Source of the DNA: a virus
Lineage: Duplodnaviria > Heunggongvirae > Uroviricota > Caudoviricetes
Direction: 5' to 3' (one strand)
DNA: 39,834 nt
IMG/VR virus record: IMGVR_UViG_2563366858_000008
Part shown: piece after piece, positions 1 to 39,834 of the stretch
Numbering within the stretch: position 1 is the first letter of the stretch
Layout of the letters: each line of letters opens with the position of its first letter
Notes under the pieces: generated by a model
What the model was told of the DNA's origin: nothing
Databases searched by the model: none
What the model saw: only the letters and a program-made list of their open reading frames with translations
Position numbers and translations under genes: made by a program

Positions 1-516
1 ATGAAATTTAAAAAATGTCTTCTGCCTGTGGCAATGTTAGCGTCATTCACTCTGGCAGGATGCCAGTCAAATGCTGATGATCATGCCGCCGATGTTTATC
101 AAACCGATCAACTGAATACCAAACAAGAAACTAAAACCGTTAATATTATTTCCATTCTTCCCGCAAAAGTTGCCGTAGACAACTCCCAAAATAAACGGAA
201 CGCACAAGCCTTCGGCGCGCTTATTGGTGCAGTCGCTGGCGGTGTAATCGGCCACAACGTGGGGTCTGGCAGCAATTCCGGAACGACGGCAGGTGCAGTT
301 GGCGGCGGAGCTGTTGGCGCGGCAGCGGGTTCTATGGTGAATGATAAAACCTTAGTGGAAGGTGTTTCTTTAACGTATAAGGAAGGCACCAAAGTGTATA
401 CCTCCACCCAGGTGGGTAAAGAGTGCCAGTTTACGACAGGTTTAGCCGTTGTTATTACCACGACGTATAACGAAACGCGTATTCAGCCAAATACGAAATG
501 TCCTGAAAAGAGCTAA
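1..516 (+). CDS. yfgH: Glycine-zipper outer-membrane lipoprotein (YfgH/YcfJ-like); host flank
   Basis: Signal peptide with lipobox LAGC; Gly/Ala-rich GAVAGGVIGH segment typical of YcfJ-type lipoproteins. Symbol from recalled similarity and 171-aa length, not verified. Confidence 0.6.
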   Translation: MKFKKCLLPVAMLASFTLAGCQSNADDHAADVYQTDQLNTKQETKTVNIISILPAKVAVDNSQNKRNAQAFGALIGAVAGGVIGHNVGSGSNSGTTAGAVGGGAVGAAAGSMVNDKTLVEGVSLTYKEGTKVYTSTQVGKECQFTTGLAVVITTTYNETRIQPNTKCPEKS

Positions 517-7600: not shown

Positions 7601-7620
7601 TACTGTATAAATATACAGTT
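7601..7620 (+). promoter_or_regulatory. LexA (SOS) box
   Basis: TACTGTATAAATATACAGTT matches CTGT-(A/T)8-ACAG; lies 20 bp upstream of the moron start codon. Confidence 0.75.
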
Positions 7621-7639: not shown

Positions 7640-7897
7640 ATGCAGCAGTATCACTATCCACTGAAAGAGGGATTTACCGAAAGGATTCACACGCCGGGAG
7701 GCGTCAGGTCACTGGTGGAAGGATCGCACTTGATGAAATTACTCCGGGATCTCGATAAGGATGGATTTAATGTCGATGGCCCACTTGCCGAACTGACTGC
7801 ACTGATTAACTACGTCACCAGCTCACAGATGTCTATGCAGGATCTGCAAACACATCTCGACTATTGTGCCGAACAATTACGAAAACAAACCCGGTAA
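7640..7897 (+). CDS. Small SOS-regulated moron protein, unknown function (candidate antirepressor)
   Basis: GGAGAAG RBS 5 nt before ATG 7640; 85 aa; the track's longer ORF from 7517 would contain the LexA box. Confidence 0.6.
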   Translation: MQQYHYPLKEGFTERIHTPGGVRSLVEGSHLMKLLRDLDKDGFNVDGPLAELTALINYVTSSQMSMQDLQTHLDYCAEQLRKQTR

Positions 7898-7921: not shown

Positions 7922-7933
7922 GTGACATGTCAC
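7922..7933. repeat. 12-bp perfect palindrome GTGACATGTCAC, copy 1
   Basis: Between lipoprotein stop (7937) and terminator hairpin. Confidence 0.8.
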
Positions 7934-24345: not shown

Positions 24346-24413
24346 ATCAATGACTCCGTACGCAATTAAATTATTACCAATTTAACCACATATGATTTAT
24401 TTATCGTAGATAG

Positions 24414-24772: not shown

Positions 24773-24849
24773 GTGGCATTAGCTCAGTTGGACAGAGCAA
24801 CCGCCTTCTAAGCGGTTGGTCGCAGGTTCGAATCCTGCATGCCACGCCA
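24773..24849 (+). tRNA. tRNA-Arg (anticodon UCU), phage-encoded
   Basis: Full cloverleaf: acceptor GTGGCAT/ATGCCAC, D-arm GCTC/GAGC, anticodon stem ACCGC/GCGGT with loop CTTCTAA, T-arm GCAGG-TTCGAAT-CCTGC, discriminator G and encoded CCA. Confidence 0.95.
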
Positions 24850-25052: not shown

Positions 25053-25424
25053 ATGAGTGACAAAGACATTGAATCTGAAATTCAGGCTAAAGGTTTAGCC
25101 GCGCCGCGCGTTACGCCAGACCATATCGAGAGCATTATTGCTCAGGAGGCATATTTCACAGCAGAAGATGGTGTCTTTGGCGTAGCCATAAAAGCGAAAC
25201 ATACTGGCGGAGAGGTAAACTACCAGCCGCACGAATCACTTTCTCTGCTGACGTTCTGCGTTCTGGTGCTGCGCAACGGCTTCACCGTCACCGGAGAGAG
25301 CGCCTGTGCAAGCCCGGAAAACTTTGATGCGGAAATTGGTCGGAAGATTGCCCGGCAGAATGCTGTAAACAAAATCTGGATGCTTGAAGGTTACTTGCTG
25401 AAGCAGAAGTTAAGCGAGCAATAA
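25053..25424 (+). CDS. Moron protein of unknown function, co-located with the tRNA
   Basis: AAGGTGAG RBS; 123 aa; opposite strand to flanking terminase and portal genes. Confidence 0.65.
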   Translation: MSDKDIESEIQAKGLAAPRVTPDHIESIIAQEAYFTAEDGVFGVAIKAKHTGGEVNYQPHESLSLLTFCVLVLRNGFTVTGESACASPENFDAEIGRKIARQNAVNKIWMLEGYLLKQKLSEQ

Positions 25425-25428
25425 CACC

Positions 25429-25440
25429 GTGACATGTCAC
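25429..25440. repeat. 12-bp perfect palindrome GTGACATGTCAC, copy 2
   Basis: 4 bp after the stop of the 25053 gene, immediately before a terminator. Confidence 0.8.
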
Positions 25441-25514: not shown

Positions 25515-26990
25515 TTAAGCATAGGGATCGTAATCTATAATGGCCTTGCCTTGCTGGTTCTGCTGCCCGGGAATTCGCAGACGCTTAGACACAGGGAACG
25601 CAAACGTCAGCAGTAGCGCATCGCCTTTACCCGGCGAACGCCCAAGCCGCTCCTTGATATCTTCCTTCGGTTCGATAACGATTTTACCGTCCACTCGAAC
25701 TTTGTACTCTGCCGCCGACAGGTCGTCCGCTGTTTCCTGGTCATCCAGCATGCCGCCCAGCCTCAGCCATGTCTTGCATGAGTTGAACATCTCCCCACGC
25801 TTGTTGAGCATCTGCGGGTCAGTAGACGCGCCACCGAACGGAACAAGTTGCCATGTGCGCCCCCAACCGTCACCGATTGACTTCAGCCCGGTACCGTAAC
25901 CGAAGTCGATGAACACCGCGTCAGCCTGATACTGGTCTTCAAAGTCAGCGATACGCTTTGCCATAATCAGATCGTCAGTGGTCTTGTTGCCGGTCCACAG
26001 CACCTTACTGTGCAGCCCCTGCCGCAGGTATATCACCGCGTCATCAACACCGGAGTATGCAGGGTCAACGCCGATTATCACCGGAGCATGTGCCACCTGC
26101 GCAGCAGTTACCACCCGTTTCATTGCCTCGTCAGTAAGACCGGTAGGGATAAACTGCAATTCAGATGCATCCGGGAATATGCCGCGCACACGGATTTTAA
26201 CGAAGTCGCTGTCTTCCCCGTAGTCATCAACCCATTTCTGCAACTGCTGTTTGTTAGTGCCTTCCACCGTCCGGCTGTCAATCTGCGCAGTTTTCCAGCG
26301 GTGTTTATATTTGCGGAAACATTCGCGGAAACGCCCGGTGTTACGTGTAGGGTTTCCGAATGCCACCCAGATAATCTCAGTGTCTTCGTCCGTCAGCGCC
26401 CCCTCAGCAACTTCCCACACCAGATCCGCAATGTTCGACGCTTCATCGAATACCACGATGATGCGTTTGCGCTCGTTGTGTAGTCCGGCGAATGCCTCAG
26501 TGTTGTGCTCAGACCAGGGTATTGCGTCAGCCCGCCACCGCTTGTCGTGCCCTGGGTCATTGCTGTACATCGCGGTAGCGGTACAGGTAAACCAGTCTTT
26601 CGTGATAGCAAGGTTCGACCACTTGATAATTTCCGGCCAGGTCTTCGTTCGTAGCTGGTTGTCGGTGTTGGCGGTCACCACGACCTTACAATCCTCGCAA
26701 GTGGACATGCCCCAGTTGATCAGCATTGAGATAAATGCGGATTTACCAATACCGTGACCAGAAGCGCGTGCCAGCATAAGCGGCTGATAGCGCGTCTCCG
26801 GATTCTGCAGGTGATCACGTATCTCTCGGAACGCATCAGCCTGCCACTGACGTGGGCCGGTAGCATGTGCCAGTTCAGTCCCCTCTTCCCCCCACGGGAA
26901 CGCATAGAGGGCATAGCCAAGCGGATCGTGAGTGAACCCTGCAATATCCTCGATCAACTGCTCTTCAGGAGATAACGCTGTATCTGTCAC
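25515..26990 (-). CDS. Terminase large subunit
   Basis: 491 aa; N-terminal ATPase region with P-loop-like GHGIGKS and C-terminal nuclease-like region; ATGA overlap with small subunit. Confidence 0.9.
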   Translation of the reverse strand: MTDTALSPEEQLIEDIAGFTHDPLGYALYAFPWGEEGTELAHATGPRQWQADAFREIRDHLQNPETRYQPLMLARASGHGIGKSAFISMLINWGMSTCEDCKVVVTANTDNQLRTKTWPEIIKWSNLAITKDWFTCTATAMYSNDPGHDKRWRADAIPWSEHNTEAFAGLHNERKRIIVVFDEASNIADLVWEVAEGALTDEDTEIIWVAFGNPTRNTGRFRECFRKYKHRWKTAQIDSRTVEGTNKQQLQKWVDDYGEDSDFVKIRVRGIFPDASELQFIPTGLTDEAMKRVVTAAQVAHAPVIIGVDPAYSGVDDAVIYLRQGLHSKVLWTGNKTTDDLIMAKRIADFEDQYQADAVFIDFGYGTGLKSIGDGWGRTWQLVPFGGASTDPQMLNKRGEMFNSCKTWLRLGGMLDDQETADDLSAAEYKVRVDGKIVIEPKEDIKERLGRSPGKGDALLLTFAFPVSKRLRIPGQQNQQGKAIIDYDPYA

Positions 26991-27583
26991 TGATTGCCAT
27001 CCTGACGTTCTTTCAGTCTCTTCCTGGCTGCCGCTATGCGATCAGCAATTGTCACATTCACATTAACATCCAGGCGTTCTTTGAACGCGTTGACATCAAC
27101 ATGCTTACCAATCAGCTCAAGGTTCTTCACCTTGTCAGGCCATTTAATTTTTTTGAGGATTGTCTCTATCGAATCCTCGTTCATGTTCATGATGGTCGAT
27201 GACAGATCAAAGCCACTAAGCGTAGTGCGCCAGATTTTCGGCCACTCACGGATTGGTTTAAGGCTCCCATCGTCGTTGAGGATATCGATCACGTCCATCT
27301 GGTCGATCTCCACCAGGCGCATGAGAACGTAATCAGCACTGACGCGCATTCGTTTGTTGCGCTCCTCCATCAACTCGGCAATCCGTTTTTGAATGCGTAC
27401 ATCGCGCATCATGACACTGGCTTTAACTGCCGCTGTATTTGGGGAGAACCCTGCGTTAATCGCTGCCTGAGTCTGGTTTTCAGGCGTTTTGATGTATGAC
27501 TGGCAATAAGCCTCCTGCATTGCTGTGAGCGGCTTAAATTGCGTTGATTTGCGTTTATAGGTTTTAGGTTCAGCAGGCATCAT
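26987..27583 (-). CDS. Terminase small subunit
   Basis: Start MMPAEPK at ATG 27583 (the track's N-terminal extension to 27661 crosses a terminator and operator repeats); motif QEAYCQSYIKT...AAINAGFS typical of small subunits. Confidence 0.75.
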   Translation of the reverse strand: MMPAEPKTYKRKSTQFKPLTAMQEAYCQSYIKTPENQTQAAINAGFSPNTAAVKASVMMRDVRIQKRIAELMEERNKRMRVSADYVLMRLVEIDQMDVIDILNDDGSLKPIREWPKIWRTTLSGFDLSSTIMNMNEDSIETILKKIKWPDKVKNLELIGKHVDVNAFKERLDVNVNVTIADRIAAARKRLKERQDGNQ

Positions 27584-27597
27584 AACCACCGTGGTAA
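27583..27597. promoter_or_regulatory. Operator-like repeat TAACCACCGTGGTAA (1 mismatch), overlapping terS start
   Basis: Adjacent to the perfect copy at 27601; 18 bp centre-to-centre. Confidence 0.45.
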
Positions 27598-27600
27598 TAG

Positions 27601-27615
27601 TTACCGTTGTGGTAA
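27601..27615. promoter_or_regulatory. Operator-like inverted repeat TTACCGTTGTGGTAA (perfect)
   Basis: Between the late-leader terminator and the terS start codon. Confidence 0.6.
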
Positions 27616-27622
27616 TAGTACC

Positions 27623-27652
27623 ATGCAAAATAAAGCCGCCATAGTTGGCGGC
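27623..27652 (-). terminator. Intrinsic terminator immediately upstream of the terminase genes (tR'-like)
   Basis: GCCGCC-aactat-GGCGGC followed by TTTATTTTG on the minus strand. Confidence 0.65.
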
Positions 27653-27657
27653 AGTAT

Positions 27658-27870
27658 TCAAAGTCCATCAAATTCATCGTAAAAACTCTCGTCAAGATAC
27701 CCTTCCCATTTACCGCGAATGAAAATTACATCCTCGCCGCAAGGGTGCTGACTGTCGATAACTATATCCCTCCTGGCGCAACCATACTTATGCATGAGAA
27801 ATTTAACCTCTTTCGGAAAATTTGCTGAGTTATCTCTCATATCTTCAAGGTCGTAGCGTATTTTTGGCAT
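27658..27870 (-). CDS. Small protein of unknown function
   Basis: Start MPKIRYD at ATG 27870 with GAAGGTG RBS; 70 aa; the track start at 27891 is a GTG inside the palindrome. Confidence 0.5.
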   Translation of the reverse strand: MPKIRYDLEDMRDNSANFPKEVKFLMHKYGCARRDIVIDSQHPCGEDVIFIRGKWEGYLDESFYDEFDGL

Positions 27871-27879
27871 AACACCTTC

Positions 27880-27891
27880 GTGACATGTCAC
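27880..27891. repeat. 12-bp perfect palindrome GTGACATGTCAC, copy 3
   Basis: Contains the TGA stop of the 27888..28226 gene and abuts the RBS of the 27658..27870 gene. Confidence 0.8.
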
Positions 27892-31431: not shown

Positions 31432-31446
31432 TTACCTCTAAGGTAA
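31432..31446. promoter_or_regulatory. Operator-like inverted repeat TTACCTCTAAGGTAA (perfect)
   Basis: Overlaps RBS/leader of the 31084..31428 gene. Confidence 0.6.
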
Positions 31447-31474
31447 TTAAAAACCACATAAGACACGAAATCAA
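31446..31474 (-). promoter_or_regulatory. Candidate sigma70 promoter for the nin-like operon
   Basis: Minus strand TTGATT, 17-bp spacer, TTTAAT; flanked by operator-like repeats at 31432 and 31494. Confidence 0.4.
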
Positions 31475-31493
31475 TAGAGCTTAGAATATTTTA

Positions 31494-31508
31494 TTACCCG
31501 ACAGGTAA
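31494..31508. promoter_or_regulatory. Operator-like inverted repeat TTACCCGACAGGTAA (perfect)
   Basis: Just downstream (minus strand) of the terminator-like hairpin after the P-like gene. Confidence 0.6.
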
Positions 31509-33918: not shown

Positions 33919-34503
33919 ATGAAAAGTATCCAGGACGTCCGCAGGCAAAATCTCAACGACTTGATCGACCGTGAATTCAATGGTGTTCAGACGCGGATGG
34001 CAGAAAAACTTGGAACTCAGGCAAATCTGGTAAACCGCTGGGCTCTTGGCAAGAAGGTTATCGGCGACCAGGTTGCGCGAAAAATTGAAGCTGCCGCCAA
34101 TAAACCCCGTAACTGGCTTGATATCGATCGCTCGCTTTCTCAGGAAGGTTTTCAGCCTGTCGGCCCAAGCGACATTGGTCAGCTGGCGGCTCACAACCTG
34201 GAACGCTGGATGAGCGAAAGCCGCGACCTTTCAACACAGGGAAAACTTCACCGCGCATCCGGCGTCGCCCAGGTGACAATCAGCCGCCTGTTAAACAATG
34301 AGGTCAGCGTTTCCATTTCCACCCTGGAGAATGTTGCATCCGCATTCGGGCGTCACGGCTATGAATTACTGATTCACCCGCACGACCCTGCGACTATCAA
34401 CTATGACCGCTCGCGCTACGCATTGTTACCCGAAACAGAGAAGGCAAAGATCGAAAGTTACATTGAATTTGTCATCAGCCAGAACGAAAAAAACAAACAA
34501 TAA
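33919..34503 (+). CDS. Prophage repressor, tandem HTH (XRE-type), no autocleavage domain (cI-like)
   Basis: Two HTH-like segments (QTRMAEKLGTQANLVNRW and ASGVAQVTISRLL); 194 aa, no room for an S24 peptidase domain; divergent from cro-like gene. Confidence 0.7.
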   Translation: MKSIQDVRRQNLNDLIDREFNGVQTRMAEKLGTQANLVNRWALGKKVIGDQVARKIEAAANKPRNWLDIDRSLSQEGFQPVGPSDIGQLAAHNLERWMSESRDLSTQGKLHRASGVAQVTISRLLNNEVSVSISTLENVASAFGRHGYELLIHPHDPATINYDRSRYALLPETEKAKIESYIEFVISQNEKNKQ

Positions 34504-34523: not shown

Positions 34524-34550
34524 AAGCCGCCTCATGGCGGCTTTTTTATT
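34524..34550 (+). terminator. Intrinsic terminator after the repressor gene
   Basis: AAGCCGCC-tcat-GGCGGCTT followed by TTTTTATT. Confidence 0.75.
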
Positions 34551-34560
34551 GCCAGCAAGA

Positions 34561-34575
34561 TTACCTTATGGGTAA
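34561..34575. promoter_or_regulatory. Operator site TTACCTTATGGGTAA (perfect)
   Basis: Upstream flank of the early-left promoter. Confidence 0.65.
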
Positions 34576-34594
34576 TTTTTTTAACTCATATCTA

Positions 34595-34622
34595 TTGACA
34601 TCAAACCAGATACGCATAATCA
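34595..34622 (+). promoter_or_regulatory. Early-left promoter (PL-like)
   Basis: TTGACA, 16-bp spacer, TAATCA; bracketed by operator sites at 34561 and 34623. Confidence 0.55.
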
Positions 34623-34637
34623 TTACCTCAACGGTAA
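34623..34637. promoter_or_regulatory. Operator site TTACCTCAACGGTAA (perfect)
   Basis: Immediately after the -10; would cover the transcription start. Confidence 0.65.
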
Positions 34638-38583: not shown

Positions 38584-39834
38584 TTATTCCTCCGCCATCC
38601 ACTTCTCAAACTTCGACGGGGAGAACGGAATCAGATCCGTATGCTCCCCGTTAATCCAGGAATCAATCATATCGGCCCACTGCTGCAACATGTAGGCGCG
38701 CTGTCTGGCGTATTCCGCTTTGTTATATACGGCGCGCACACCTTTCTGCTCATGTGCCAGAGCCTTTTCAATCCAGTCTGAAGGATAACCAGCCTCATGC
38801 AACAACGTACTGGCTGTACGGCGCATATCATGTACAGTGAAGTCCTGAATATGATCACCATCTTCATTTATTATTTTCACCGTTCTGTCGATCAGAGAGT
38901 TCAGCGCGGCATTAGATAATGGCTTCCGGAAATTGTAACGACCAGGAACCAGATATTCACTTCCACCAGCGCACATCTGCAACCCGATTAATATATCCTG
39001 TGCCTGTTTAGGCAGGTAAATAACGTGCGCCCGACTTCCCTTCATGCGGTCTGAAGGAATTGTCCATGTCCATTTTTTAAAATCTATTTCATCCCACGTT
39101 GCATTGGTGAATTCGCCTTTACGAACCATAGTGATAAGCACCAGCTTTAAAGCCATTTTCATAGTGCCCATAGCACCAATGGCATCCAGCGTGCGGAAGA
39201 ACAGACCAATTTCTTCTGGTGTCAGTGTTCGCTCTCGTGGTTTAAATATGGCGATAGACGAAGGTTTAATGTCAGCCGCAGGATTAAACAAACCATGACC
39301 ACGGTCATTGGCGTGACGGTATACGCTGCTGATGATCTCCCTGGCCTGCACTGCTGTTGCCCGACCACCGCGTTCGACAATCCGGTCACACAAATCACGA
39401 ACCATCGATGTGGTAATTTCAGCCATTATTTTGTTGCCAAGAACCGGAAGTATGTCACGGTCGATCACCGCCTGCTTCATTGCGCGGGTACTGTCAGCCA
39501 GGATGACGTGTTTCATATAACTGTCGGTATGTACCGCAAACGTCTCGGCACCACGAATCTTTTTGATACCGTCACGTTTAGCCGCAGCCGGCGACTGGCC
39601 TGCTTTAAGCAGCTTCTTTGCAGCAATCAGTTCTTCTCGCGCTTCTGCCAGGCTGATACCGTCACGCCCATACTGCCCGATTACCAGTGTTTCGCGGCGA
39701 CCGTTGATACGGTAGTCATAGCGAAACGAGACCGTGCCTGACGTAAGCACAGCTACATACAGCCCGTCACGATCGGAGACCTTGTACAGTTTGTCCTGCG
39801 GCTTGAGGTTTTTTAATTTTGTATCGGTAAGCAC
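38584..39834 (-). CDS. int: Tyrosine integrase, P4-like; start at window edge
   Basis: N-terminal LTDTKLKNLKP...YKVSDRDGLYVAV arm-binding-like domain; C-terminal HDMRRT and VYNKAEY catalytic Tyr region; GTG at 39832..39834, upstream context not visible. Confidence 0.9.
   Translation of the reverse strand: MLTDTKLKNLKPQDKLYKVSDRDGLYVAVLTSGTVSFRYDYRINGRRETLVIGQYGRDGISLAEAREELIAAKKLLKAGQSPAAAKRDGIKKIRGAETFAVHTDSYMKHVILADSTRAMKQAVIDRDILPVLGNKIMAEITTSMVRDLCDRIVERGGRATAVQAREIISSVYRHANDRGHGLFNPAADIKPSSIAIFKPRERTLTPEEIGLFFRTLDAIGAMGTMKMALKLVLITMVRKGEFTNATWDEIDFKKWTWTIPSDRMKGSRAHVIYLPKQAQDILIGLQMCAGGSEYLVPGRYNFRKPLSNAALNSLIDRTVKIINEDGDHIQDFTVHDMRRTASTLLHEAGYPSDWIEKALAHEQKGVRAVYNKAEYARQRAYMLQQWADMIDSWINGEHTDLIPFSPSKFEKWMAEE

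Follow-up and report, generated by a model that had tools for sequence, protein, structure and literature searches.

The leader of the terminase small-subunit gene (terS) in the 39,834-nucleotide stretch of DNA analyzed here (hereafter the window) is, in our moderately confident view, an operon-boundary module composed of a terminator, a repressor-controlled promoter devoid of a -35 element, an operator dyad (O1), and an auxiliary dyad (O2). According to this model, the terminator would end an upstream operon of ~3.8 kb, which extends from the promoter Pnin and DUF1064 through a gp49-like regulator and a small open reading frame (ORF), and an extended -10 promoter (TGgTACTAT, 27623-27615) lacking a -35 would drive terS-terL from a start near 27608. 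As O1 is centered on the predicted +1 and shares a T with the -10, bound repressor would occlude RNA polymerase at this site, and O1 would also act as a roadblock to any polymerase leaking through the terminator. The second dyad, O2, located 18 bp downstream over the Shine-Dalgarno sequence, would be a weaker auxiliary site, dispensable in some lineages, and a multimeric Rep may engage both dyads. In the lysogen, a repressor of the SPC32H Rep type would silence terminase through O1 and possibly O2, and an SOS-induced antirepressor would free the promoter, which the terminator would insulate from the upstream operon. With a promoter of its own insulated in this way, the leader would not need obligatory read-through. 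From sequence features, conservation, the match to the OL/OR sites, and repressor homology, we infer promoter activity, the start site, repressor occupancy, termination, and any need for an activator.

Table 1. Features of the terS leader and associated genes, with their positions in the window
Feature	Position	Strand	Remarks
Whole control region			Terminator, then a repressor-binding site probably on a small promoter; precedes the DNA-packaging genes
gp49-like small "transcriptional regulator" (phrog_536), 112 aa	27888..28226	-	C-terminal Cys cluster
Perfect 12-bp palindrome GTGACATGTCAC	27880..27891	.	Overlaps the regulator stop codon
Upstream small ORF, 70 aa (phrog_1541)	27658..27870	-	From ATG 27870; stop TGA 27660-27658
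Terminator stem-loop GCCGCC-aactat-GGCGGC	27635..27652	-	-12.6 kcal/mol; kept in most relatives
Terminator U-tract TTTATTTT	27627..27634	-	Directly 3' of the stem-loop
Extended -10 element TG-g-TACTAT	27615..27623	-	Predicted, without -35; inferred start ~27608
Operator O1, TTACC-acaac-GGTAA	27601..27615	-	Perfect dyad, centered on the predicted +1
Operator-like dyad O2, TTACC-acggt-GGTTA	27583..27597	-	One arm mismatch; weak, lineage-specific
terS Shine-Dalgarno GGTGG	27586..27590	-	Inside O2; the Tyrion record annotates an RBS
terS (terminase small subunit, PF03592)	26987..27580	-	Conserved ATG 27580-27578
Prophage repressor, presumed dyad-binding protein	33919..34503	+	SPC32H Rep homologue

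Prophage context and related loci

The window represents a prophage of the Uetakevirus type (epsilon15/phiV10-like) positioned beside guaA. The 1.5 kb around the leader were 100% identical to an E. coli chromosome, inside a prophage next to guaA, and 97-98% identical to phages of the phiV10 type (among them PAS61, O157 typing phages 9 and 10, TL-2011b, and ZX5). Similar DNA was detected in 877 of 5426 complete E. coli genomes (~16%), and this prophage type is also found in many other Enterobacteriaceae. The gene order is that of epsilon15 and phiV10, comprising integrase, recT, repressor, cro-like gene, and replication genes, then DUF1064, DUF551, and the small regulator, followed by terS, terL, portal, virion genes, tail fibre, and lysis, with the late genes on the minus strand of the window. 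Unlike both phages, the prophage has an additional ORF of 70 aa that separates the regulator from the terminator. This ORF (70/77 aa) is the last gene of the upstream operon, and phiV10 keeps only its last ~7 codons, which points to a variable insertion. Farther along the late region, the units for portal, tail fibre, and lysis each lie behind opposite-strand inserts that cut them off from the late genes before them, and each of these units has a dyad of its own, so that late transcription would in any case be divided among several promoter units.

For comparison, 93 related loci were gathered by terS protein similarity and not by motif. These comprise 80 E. coli-type viral contigs, 10 prophages from other genera with terS identities of 67-89% (hosts: Pseudocitrobacter, Citrobacter, Erwinia, Klebsiella, Scandinavium, Superficieibacter, Kluyvera, Pseudescherichia, and Buttiauxella), and phiV10, Tyrion, and one epsilon15-like phage. 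Two hybrid loci (L034 and L008) carry lambda-like CI and N and yet retain the dyads; their late regions are 99% identical, derive from a single metagenome, and contain a frameshifted regulator, and they are probably recent recombinants or assembly chimeras.

The predicted terminator and the question of read-through

On the minus strand, the terminator as a whole spans 27652-27627 and begins 5 nt past the TGA of the upstream ORF, its stem consisting of 6-7 bp with six G-C pairs. Under a strict definition (a 6-bp all-GC stem with at least 6/8 T), three terminators were found in the window versus 0.035 expected from first-order Markov shuffles. The strong hairpin and U-tract that the original prediction placed straight after the upstream stop and ahead of terS are borne out by this short gap, the folding energy, and the rarity of such sites. 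The element combines a GC-rich stem-loop and a U-tract with a position at the 3' end of a unit and with conservation, as is characteristic of intrinsic terminators, and the phiV10 (NC_007804.2) and epsilon15 (NC_004775.2) records annotate a rho-independent terminator at the homologous position, which in epsilon15 corresponds to 39646..39672, after gp49. Judged by these features, it is a bona fide-looking predicted intrinsic terminator. The annotations in the two phage records are themselves predictions.

The hairpin was nearly invariant in the relatives that have one and was absent from three lineages (L085, L087, and L098, the last being Klebsiella phage ST11-OXA245phi3.2). In these lineages a different gene ends ~25 nt ahead of the TGn, and both the TGn/-10 and the O1 core are retained. 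Within the prophage, a terminator followed by a dyad is present not only before terS but also downstream of cI, of cro, and of the replication genes, which suggests that the terminators are insulators between separately repressed units.

The same arrangement could be read in another way. The original prediction had proposed that late expression needs read-through of the terminator; the leader would then have no promoter, terS-terL would be transcribed from Pnin or PR with the terminator overridden, for example by the gp49-like regulator, and the dyads would be elongation roadblocks in the lysogen, like stoperators. The recurrence of terminator-then-operator pairs would agree with such a scheme, as would the order of a small regulator gene, a strong terminator, and the late genes, which is also the order of the lambda Q/PR'/tR' module. 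The gp49-like regulator indeed occupies the place where lambdoid phages carry Q, and the conserved palindrome GTGACATGTCAC, present in three copies each beside a terminator (the other two being late-region terminators), could be a loading or binding site. However, the regulator had no Pfam match, and hence no match to the Q or N families, and no PDB sequence match; its sole NCBIfam match, to an unrelated "LexA regulated protein" model, was sub-threshold (E 0.085), its AlphaFold model was poor (pLDDT 58.6), and phage Chlobot has only a fragment of it, at a non-late position. The distance between palindrome and terminator varied from 24 to ~240 nt in the relatives, with no conserved promoter between them in the relatives compared, and the other late units, each with its own dyad, lie beyond the reach of read-through from this point.

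In lambda, the late operon is untouched by CI and is controlled by Q at PR'/tR'. The present leader departs from that module in several respects: the search for a Q-family protein was negative, three lineages do without the terminator, no conserved promoter with a qut-like site was found ahead of the terminator, and a promoter-like element that is conserved follows it. Read-through also leaves unexplained why TG and TA..AT are invariant around a free n, and why the TGn/-10 and O1 are kept where the terminator is absent. These observations, added to the occurrence of the invariant TGnTAsTAT downstream of the terminator in the register of PL and Pnin (see below), argue against a need for read-through, which we regard as an unlikely account although the -10 hexamer, with only four of six consensus matches, speaks in its favor. 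A separate candidate, a promoter of the PR' kind for which the palindrome would supply the -35 (GTGACA-17-TAAATT), was rejected, being plausible only in the epsilon15-type and not conserved in the phiV10-type.

Operator dyads and the presumed repressor

The leader reads, on the minus strand, GCA TGg TACTAT|TACC acaac GGTAA cta TTACC acggt GGTTA tg ATG. Both dyads that had been proposed between the terminator and the start codon, a perfect one at 27601 and one with a single mismatch at 27583, were verified; they lie 18 bp apart from center to center, and O2 overlaps the Shine-Dalgarno sequence. Throughout the 39.8 kb, the pattern TTACC-N5-GGTAA has seven perfect copies versus ~0.04 by chance (our own estimate), and allowing up to two mismatches gave 34 matches versus 11.3 in shuffles. 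All 7/7 perfect dyads are intergenic, with an intergenic share of the prophage of only 7.6% (P ~1.5e-8). Dyads of this motif are located at OR, between the cro-like gene and the repressor gene (33801, 33832, and 33849), at OL (34561 and 34623), at the start of the DUF1064 operon (31432 and 31494), after cro (33464), at the portal operon (24436), and in the tail-fibre (7549) and lysis (3191) regions.

A position weight matrix (PWM) was trained on these 11 intergenic sites only, leaving out O1 and O2. Scored with this matrix, O1 reached 16.0 bits (rank 11/39,815), a value within the range of the OL/OR sites and the highest of any untrained site, the next reaching 9.6. The O2 dyad scored 1.3 bits (rank 86), which is not significant alone; the support for O2 comes from its conservation in relatives. 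A third candidate dyad over the U-tract (27618-27632) was rejected with a score of -10.4.

The arms of O1, which is conserved across at least 10 genera, were invariant in the 35 unique leaders except for two singletons, and all 5/5 spacer columns varied. The linker between O1 and O2 was variable in sequence and 3-5 nt long, and O2 itself kept TTAC(C/T) and GGT(A/T)A in these leaders, with degenerate forms in two lineages (L092 and L098). In 10 other genera the dyads were found at the same places (OL, OR, and other junctions), also where the repressors share only 41% identity, and down to that identity the dyad arms were identical in all relatives, leaving no arm variation to compare with immunity type. 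The conservation of the right arm of O2 may reflect only the Shine-Dalgarno sequence.

The orthologous leaders of epsilon15 (NC_004775.2) and phiV10 (NC_007804.2) provide a direct comparison. In the epsilon15 record, a "protein_bind: repressor" feature at 12..27, ahead of terS, is exactly O1, and further repressor sites are annotated before gp3/portal, the tail fibre, OL (three sites), and RuvC; both records annotate neither O2 nor a promoter in the leader. The repressor of the present prophage matched SPC32H Rep (PDB 5D50) over its full length (E = 4e-42) and contains two HTH-like regions and no peptidase domain, and repressor identity between the phiV10 and epsilon15 classes was 41-45%. A paper discussing Kim et al. 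2016 (PMC9638917) describes Rep as binding palindromic DNA as a tetramer and as being dismantled by an antirepressor. SPC32H, whose Rep/Ant pair is represented by PDB 5D50 and 5D4Z, has the same leader before terS as found here, and according to secondary accounts the published SPC32H work deals with the immunity switch rather than with the terS leader. An antirepressor-like gene is preceded, at a distance of ~20 nt, by a LexA box (7601-7620) close to the consensus, which fits induction by the SOS response via an antirepressor. On these sequence comparisons, O1 is a solid predicted operator of an epsilon15/SPC32H-type repressor, and O2 a weak one. The original suggestion that a dyad-binding protein may directly block late expression is likewise the best reading of the equivalence of O1 to the OL/OR sites, its presence in at least 10 genera, and the epsilon15 repressor annotation. 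The cro-like protein may bind the same dyads. Whereas the OL/OR half-sites have T or C at position 6, those before terS in this phage have A or G, and given this difference the affinity of O1 and O2 may be lower than that of OL/OR.

Headful phages have their pac sites within or close to terS, and several phage records are opened at this very point, so that the repeated CTATTACCAC units beside terS might be terminase (pac) recognition sites rather than operators. This we consider extremely improbable: with ~11 further occurrences, OL and OR among them, the dyad cannot mark a unique pac site, and the epsilon15 annotators gave the site to the repressor. Moreover, the record openings differ slightly relative to the regulator stop codon and the terminator, and thus likely follow an annotation convention rather than mapped ends.

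Taking the dyads as operators, the scheme resembles lambda OL/OR (CI and Cro) in that dyad operators lie over -10/+1, adjacent pairs are spaced 17-18 bp, and repression would act by promoter occlusion; it differs in that the terminase leader itself carries an operator, as do the starts of all other operons. Phage P1 has many dispersed repressor sites, a style resembled here. A further parallel is L5, in which one repressor also serves many scattered sites in short intergenic spaces, including late regions, and could stop both initiation and elongation. The sites of L5 and cluster A are asymmetric 13-mers, orientation-dependent and monomer-bound (PMC9283540), whereas the sites described here are dyad-symmetric and stand where operons begin, and the related Rep is reported to be a tetramer; they are thus distinct from stoperators of the L5 type.

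The predicted promoter, terminase control, and the terS start

The extended -10 element lies between the U-tract and O1, and its hexamer (27620-27615) ends with the T that is the first T of O1. It has the TGn and TAnnnT of sigma-70 extended -10 promoters, with TG, A-11, and T-7 fixed and n free among the relatives, although the hexamer TACTAT agrees with the consensus at only 4/6 positions. An automated promoter scan made no call on this -10, as no -35 is present; the -35 position is filled by the 3' arm of the terminator, which fits a reliance on TGn. A sigma-70 promoter with a -35 was rejected for the leader on the same ground, namely that this position sits in the terminator stem.

The motif TGnTAsTAT fused to O1 was found in 93/93 loci, and TG, TA, and TAT were invariant in 35/35 unique leaders, in which the n position was G21/T8/A6 and hexamer position 3 was C27/G6/T2. 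Variation falls on n, on hexamer position 3, and on the dyad spacers and linkers, and spares TG, TA..AT, and the arms. Fisher tests of constrained against free columns gave p = 7e-6, 2e-3 in the E. coli types alone, and another 2e-3, values to be read with the extended -10 class having been defined post hoc, after the alignment had been seen, and the dyad classes in advance. One E. coli variant changes TACTAT to TATTAT, nearer the consensus, and the Klebsiella lineage that lacks the terminator has TGgTATTAT.

The register of this element has counterparts elsewhere in the prophage. In 11 relatives, PL and Pnin (before DUF1064/RuvC) share a common design consisting of a distal dyad, 19 nt, a -35 (TTGACA or TTGATT), 17 nt, a -10, and a proximal dyad, with the two dyads spaced 61-63 bp apart. 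In both promoters, the -10 hexamer and the proximal dyad have one T in common, which ends the hexamer and begins the dyad, the same register as in the terS leader. Taken together, these features indicate that the leader most likely holds its own repressor-controlled promoter. A bare repressor-controlled promoter would provide no early/late timing, and an activator may be required, for which the gp49-like protein would be a candidate.

Part of this leader is already known, since the epsilon15 annotators recognized the terminator and O1 and the present leader is an orthologue of those recognized features; the ZX5 and phiV10 papers make no statement on operators or late control. Added here are the probable extended -10 promoter, whose register is that of PL and Pnin, the assessment of O2 as a weak and lineage-specific site, the evidence that some lineages can dispense with the terminator, and a corrected terS start. 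Both phiV10 and SPC32H serve as reporter phages, and the prospect that terminase is under a small, directly repressor-controlled promoter rather than a lambda-style antitermination cascade could guide phage engineering, such as the choice of reporter insertion sites and the making of lytic derivatives, besides aiding the reading of prophage transcriptomes and the mending of mis-annotated terS starts. Conceptually, this would be one more temperate phage, here an enterobacterial one, with a repressor that reaches all of its operons.

The tandem dyads also raise the possibility of control at the RNA level, in which the four dyad arms would form a nested hairpin hiding the Shine-Dalgarno sequence and AUG, so that terS translation would be regulated; in a variant, read-through transcripts would be translationally silent and promoter-proximal ones active. 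The leader segment 27634-27560 folds at -20.7 kcal/mol (z = -3.3) with a stem covering GGUGG and AUG, and a transcript from 27608 lacks the long nested stem (-9.3 kcal/mol, z = -1.0), although at minimum energy it still forms a weak local hairpin that pairs the GGUGG region. Similar folds were obtained for two relatives (L090 and L087), whereas a third (L094) folded no better than shuffles. However, any two tandem palindromes fold in this manner, the RNAalifold covariation term was only -0.13 with arms that are simply invariant, the two lineages with a degenerate O2 are at odds with it, and the leader had no Rfam match. On balance, translational control by the dyad arms appears very unlikely.

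A broader reading, which we deem distinctly doubtful, would join several of these elements into a genome-wide distributed-operator scheme. Each Uetakevirus operon junction would carry a terminator and a Rep dyad (~13 sites), and a single Rep tetramer would span the two members of a dyad pair, spaced at 18 bp or 62 bp. The dyad-arm RNA would have a dual use, masking the Shine-Dalgarno sequence and AUG in transcripts that arise by read-through and in no others, such that terminase would be made only from its own promoter, and the conserved modules of GTGACATGTCAC and a terminator, present at three boundaries of late operons, would serve as targets for the gp49-like regulator, coupling or uncoupling the late operons.

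The RefSeq and phiV10 annotations start terS at TTG 27661, a choice that would translate the hairpin and the dyads, and the changes in linker/gap length among the relatives disrupt the upstream frame from this TTG. The comparison of leaders indicates that this widespread start annotation is wrong and that the conserved ATG at 27580 is the predicted start instead. Another ATG, at 27583, is missing in other genera, which have CAATG there. The original prediction had O2 overlapping the start ATG, a detail that did not hold, for O2 ends 2 nt short of the conserved ATG 27580 and overlaps only the non-conserved ATG 27583. For a repressor that acts by binding DNA, it is in any case of no direct consequence whether its site covers a start codon.

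Operator arrangement and the terS leader

Two promoters, PL (at OL) and Pnin (ahead of the DUF1064 gene), carry paired copies of the dyad TTACC-N5-GGTAA, the predicted operator of the prophage repressor. Their layout, conserved across 11 relatives, runs as distal dyad, 19 nt, -35, 17 nt, -10 and proximal dyad, and in these same relatives the last T of the -10 is also the start of the proximal dyad. The distal and proximal dyads are 61-63 bp apart, and this spacing of about six helical turns suggests that a single repressor multimer may loop the DNA between them.

A dyad also follows the terminator past the repressor gene, as it does in the leader of terS (terminase small subunit), and the stem of this terminator (GCCGCC...GGCGGC) is identical to that of the terS-leader terminator. 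Further terminator-then-dyad pairs were found after cro and after the replication genes. In the RefSeq and phiV10 records, terS starts at TTG 27661 (224 aa), a choice by which the terminator hairpin and both dyads (27581-27661) would be translated. Among relatives, this same stretch exhibits frame-breaking length changes, and the downstream ATG is the annotated start in Tyrion and epsilon15. Judged from these sequences, ATG 27580 is almost certainly the true start, and the terS product would have 197 aa.

Features of the window
Feature	Position	Detail
LexA box AACTGTATATTTATACAGTA	7601-7620	near-consensus, 1 mismatch
p24-like gene	7640-7897	phrog_450
Palindrome GTGACATGTCAC	7922-7933, 25429-25440, 27880-27891	12 bp, perfect; three copies
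Block TGGTTAAATTGGTAATAATTTAAT	24365-24388	24 nt; upstream of portal operon
tRNA-Arg(TCT) gene	24773-24849	opposite strand to late genes; between terL and portal operon
Gp49-family gene	25053-25424	opposite strand to late genes; between terL and portal operon
Pnin	31432-31508	promoter with paired dyads
Terminator-dyad pair	~31535-31494	after replication genes
Terminator-dyad pair	~33511-33450	after cro
Terminator	34526-34549	past repressor gene
PL	34561-34637	promoter with paired dyads

Conserved elements of the late region

The opposite-strand insert with the tRNA-Arg(TCT) and Gp49-family genes divides the late region into distinct transcription units. The TGGTTAAATTGGTAATAATTTAAT block, which lies about 47 nt downstream of the portal dyad and contains the inverted repeat TTAAATT-N6-AATTTAA, was invariant in each of the 14 genus-level relatives. 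Such conservation exceeds what a promoter needs, and the block may serve as an RNA element or as the site of an activator. The tail-fibre and lysis units are preceded by a related motif, CATATRTGGTT.

The palindrome GTGACATGTCAC, for which we estimate a chance number of ~0.002 each, is located at the stop codon of the small regulator gene upstream of terS (the gp49-like regulator), past terL and Gp49, and past the virion operon. All three copies are at operon ends, 3-24 nt away from an intrinsic terminator, and each adjoins a variable inserted gene. Corresponding copies are conserved in phiV10, Tyrion, an epsilon15-like phage and eight prophages of other genera. The palindrome could mark a module-exchange boundary, act as an RNA 3'-end element or be bound by the gp49-like regulator.

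Induction and hybrid loci

The LexA box precedes the p24-like gene, whose antirepressor similarity is weak, by ~20 nt, and domain annotation of the prophage repressor protein revealed no peptidase domain. This placement implies that SOS induction would proceed via an antirepressor, the mode by which SPC32H is induced. In two related loci, L085 and L086, a further LexA-box-like module is located between the regulator and terS.

Two IMG/VR contigs from metagenome 3300045988 (L034 and L008) combine an early region encoding N and a lambda-like CI, with peptidase domain, with the same late region as the present prophage, the two being joined by ead/Ea22- and DUF551-like genes. These contigs represent either recent recombinants or assembly chimeras; in both, the gp49-like regulator is frameshifted and the terS leader is unchanged.
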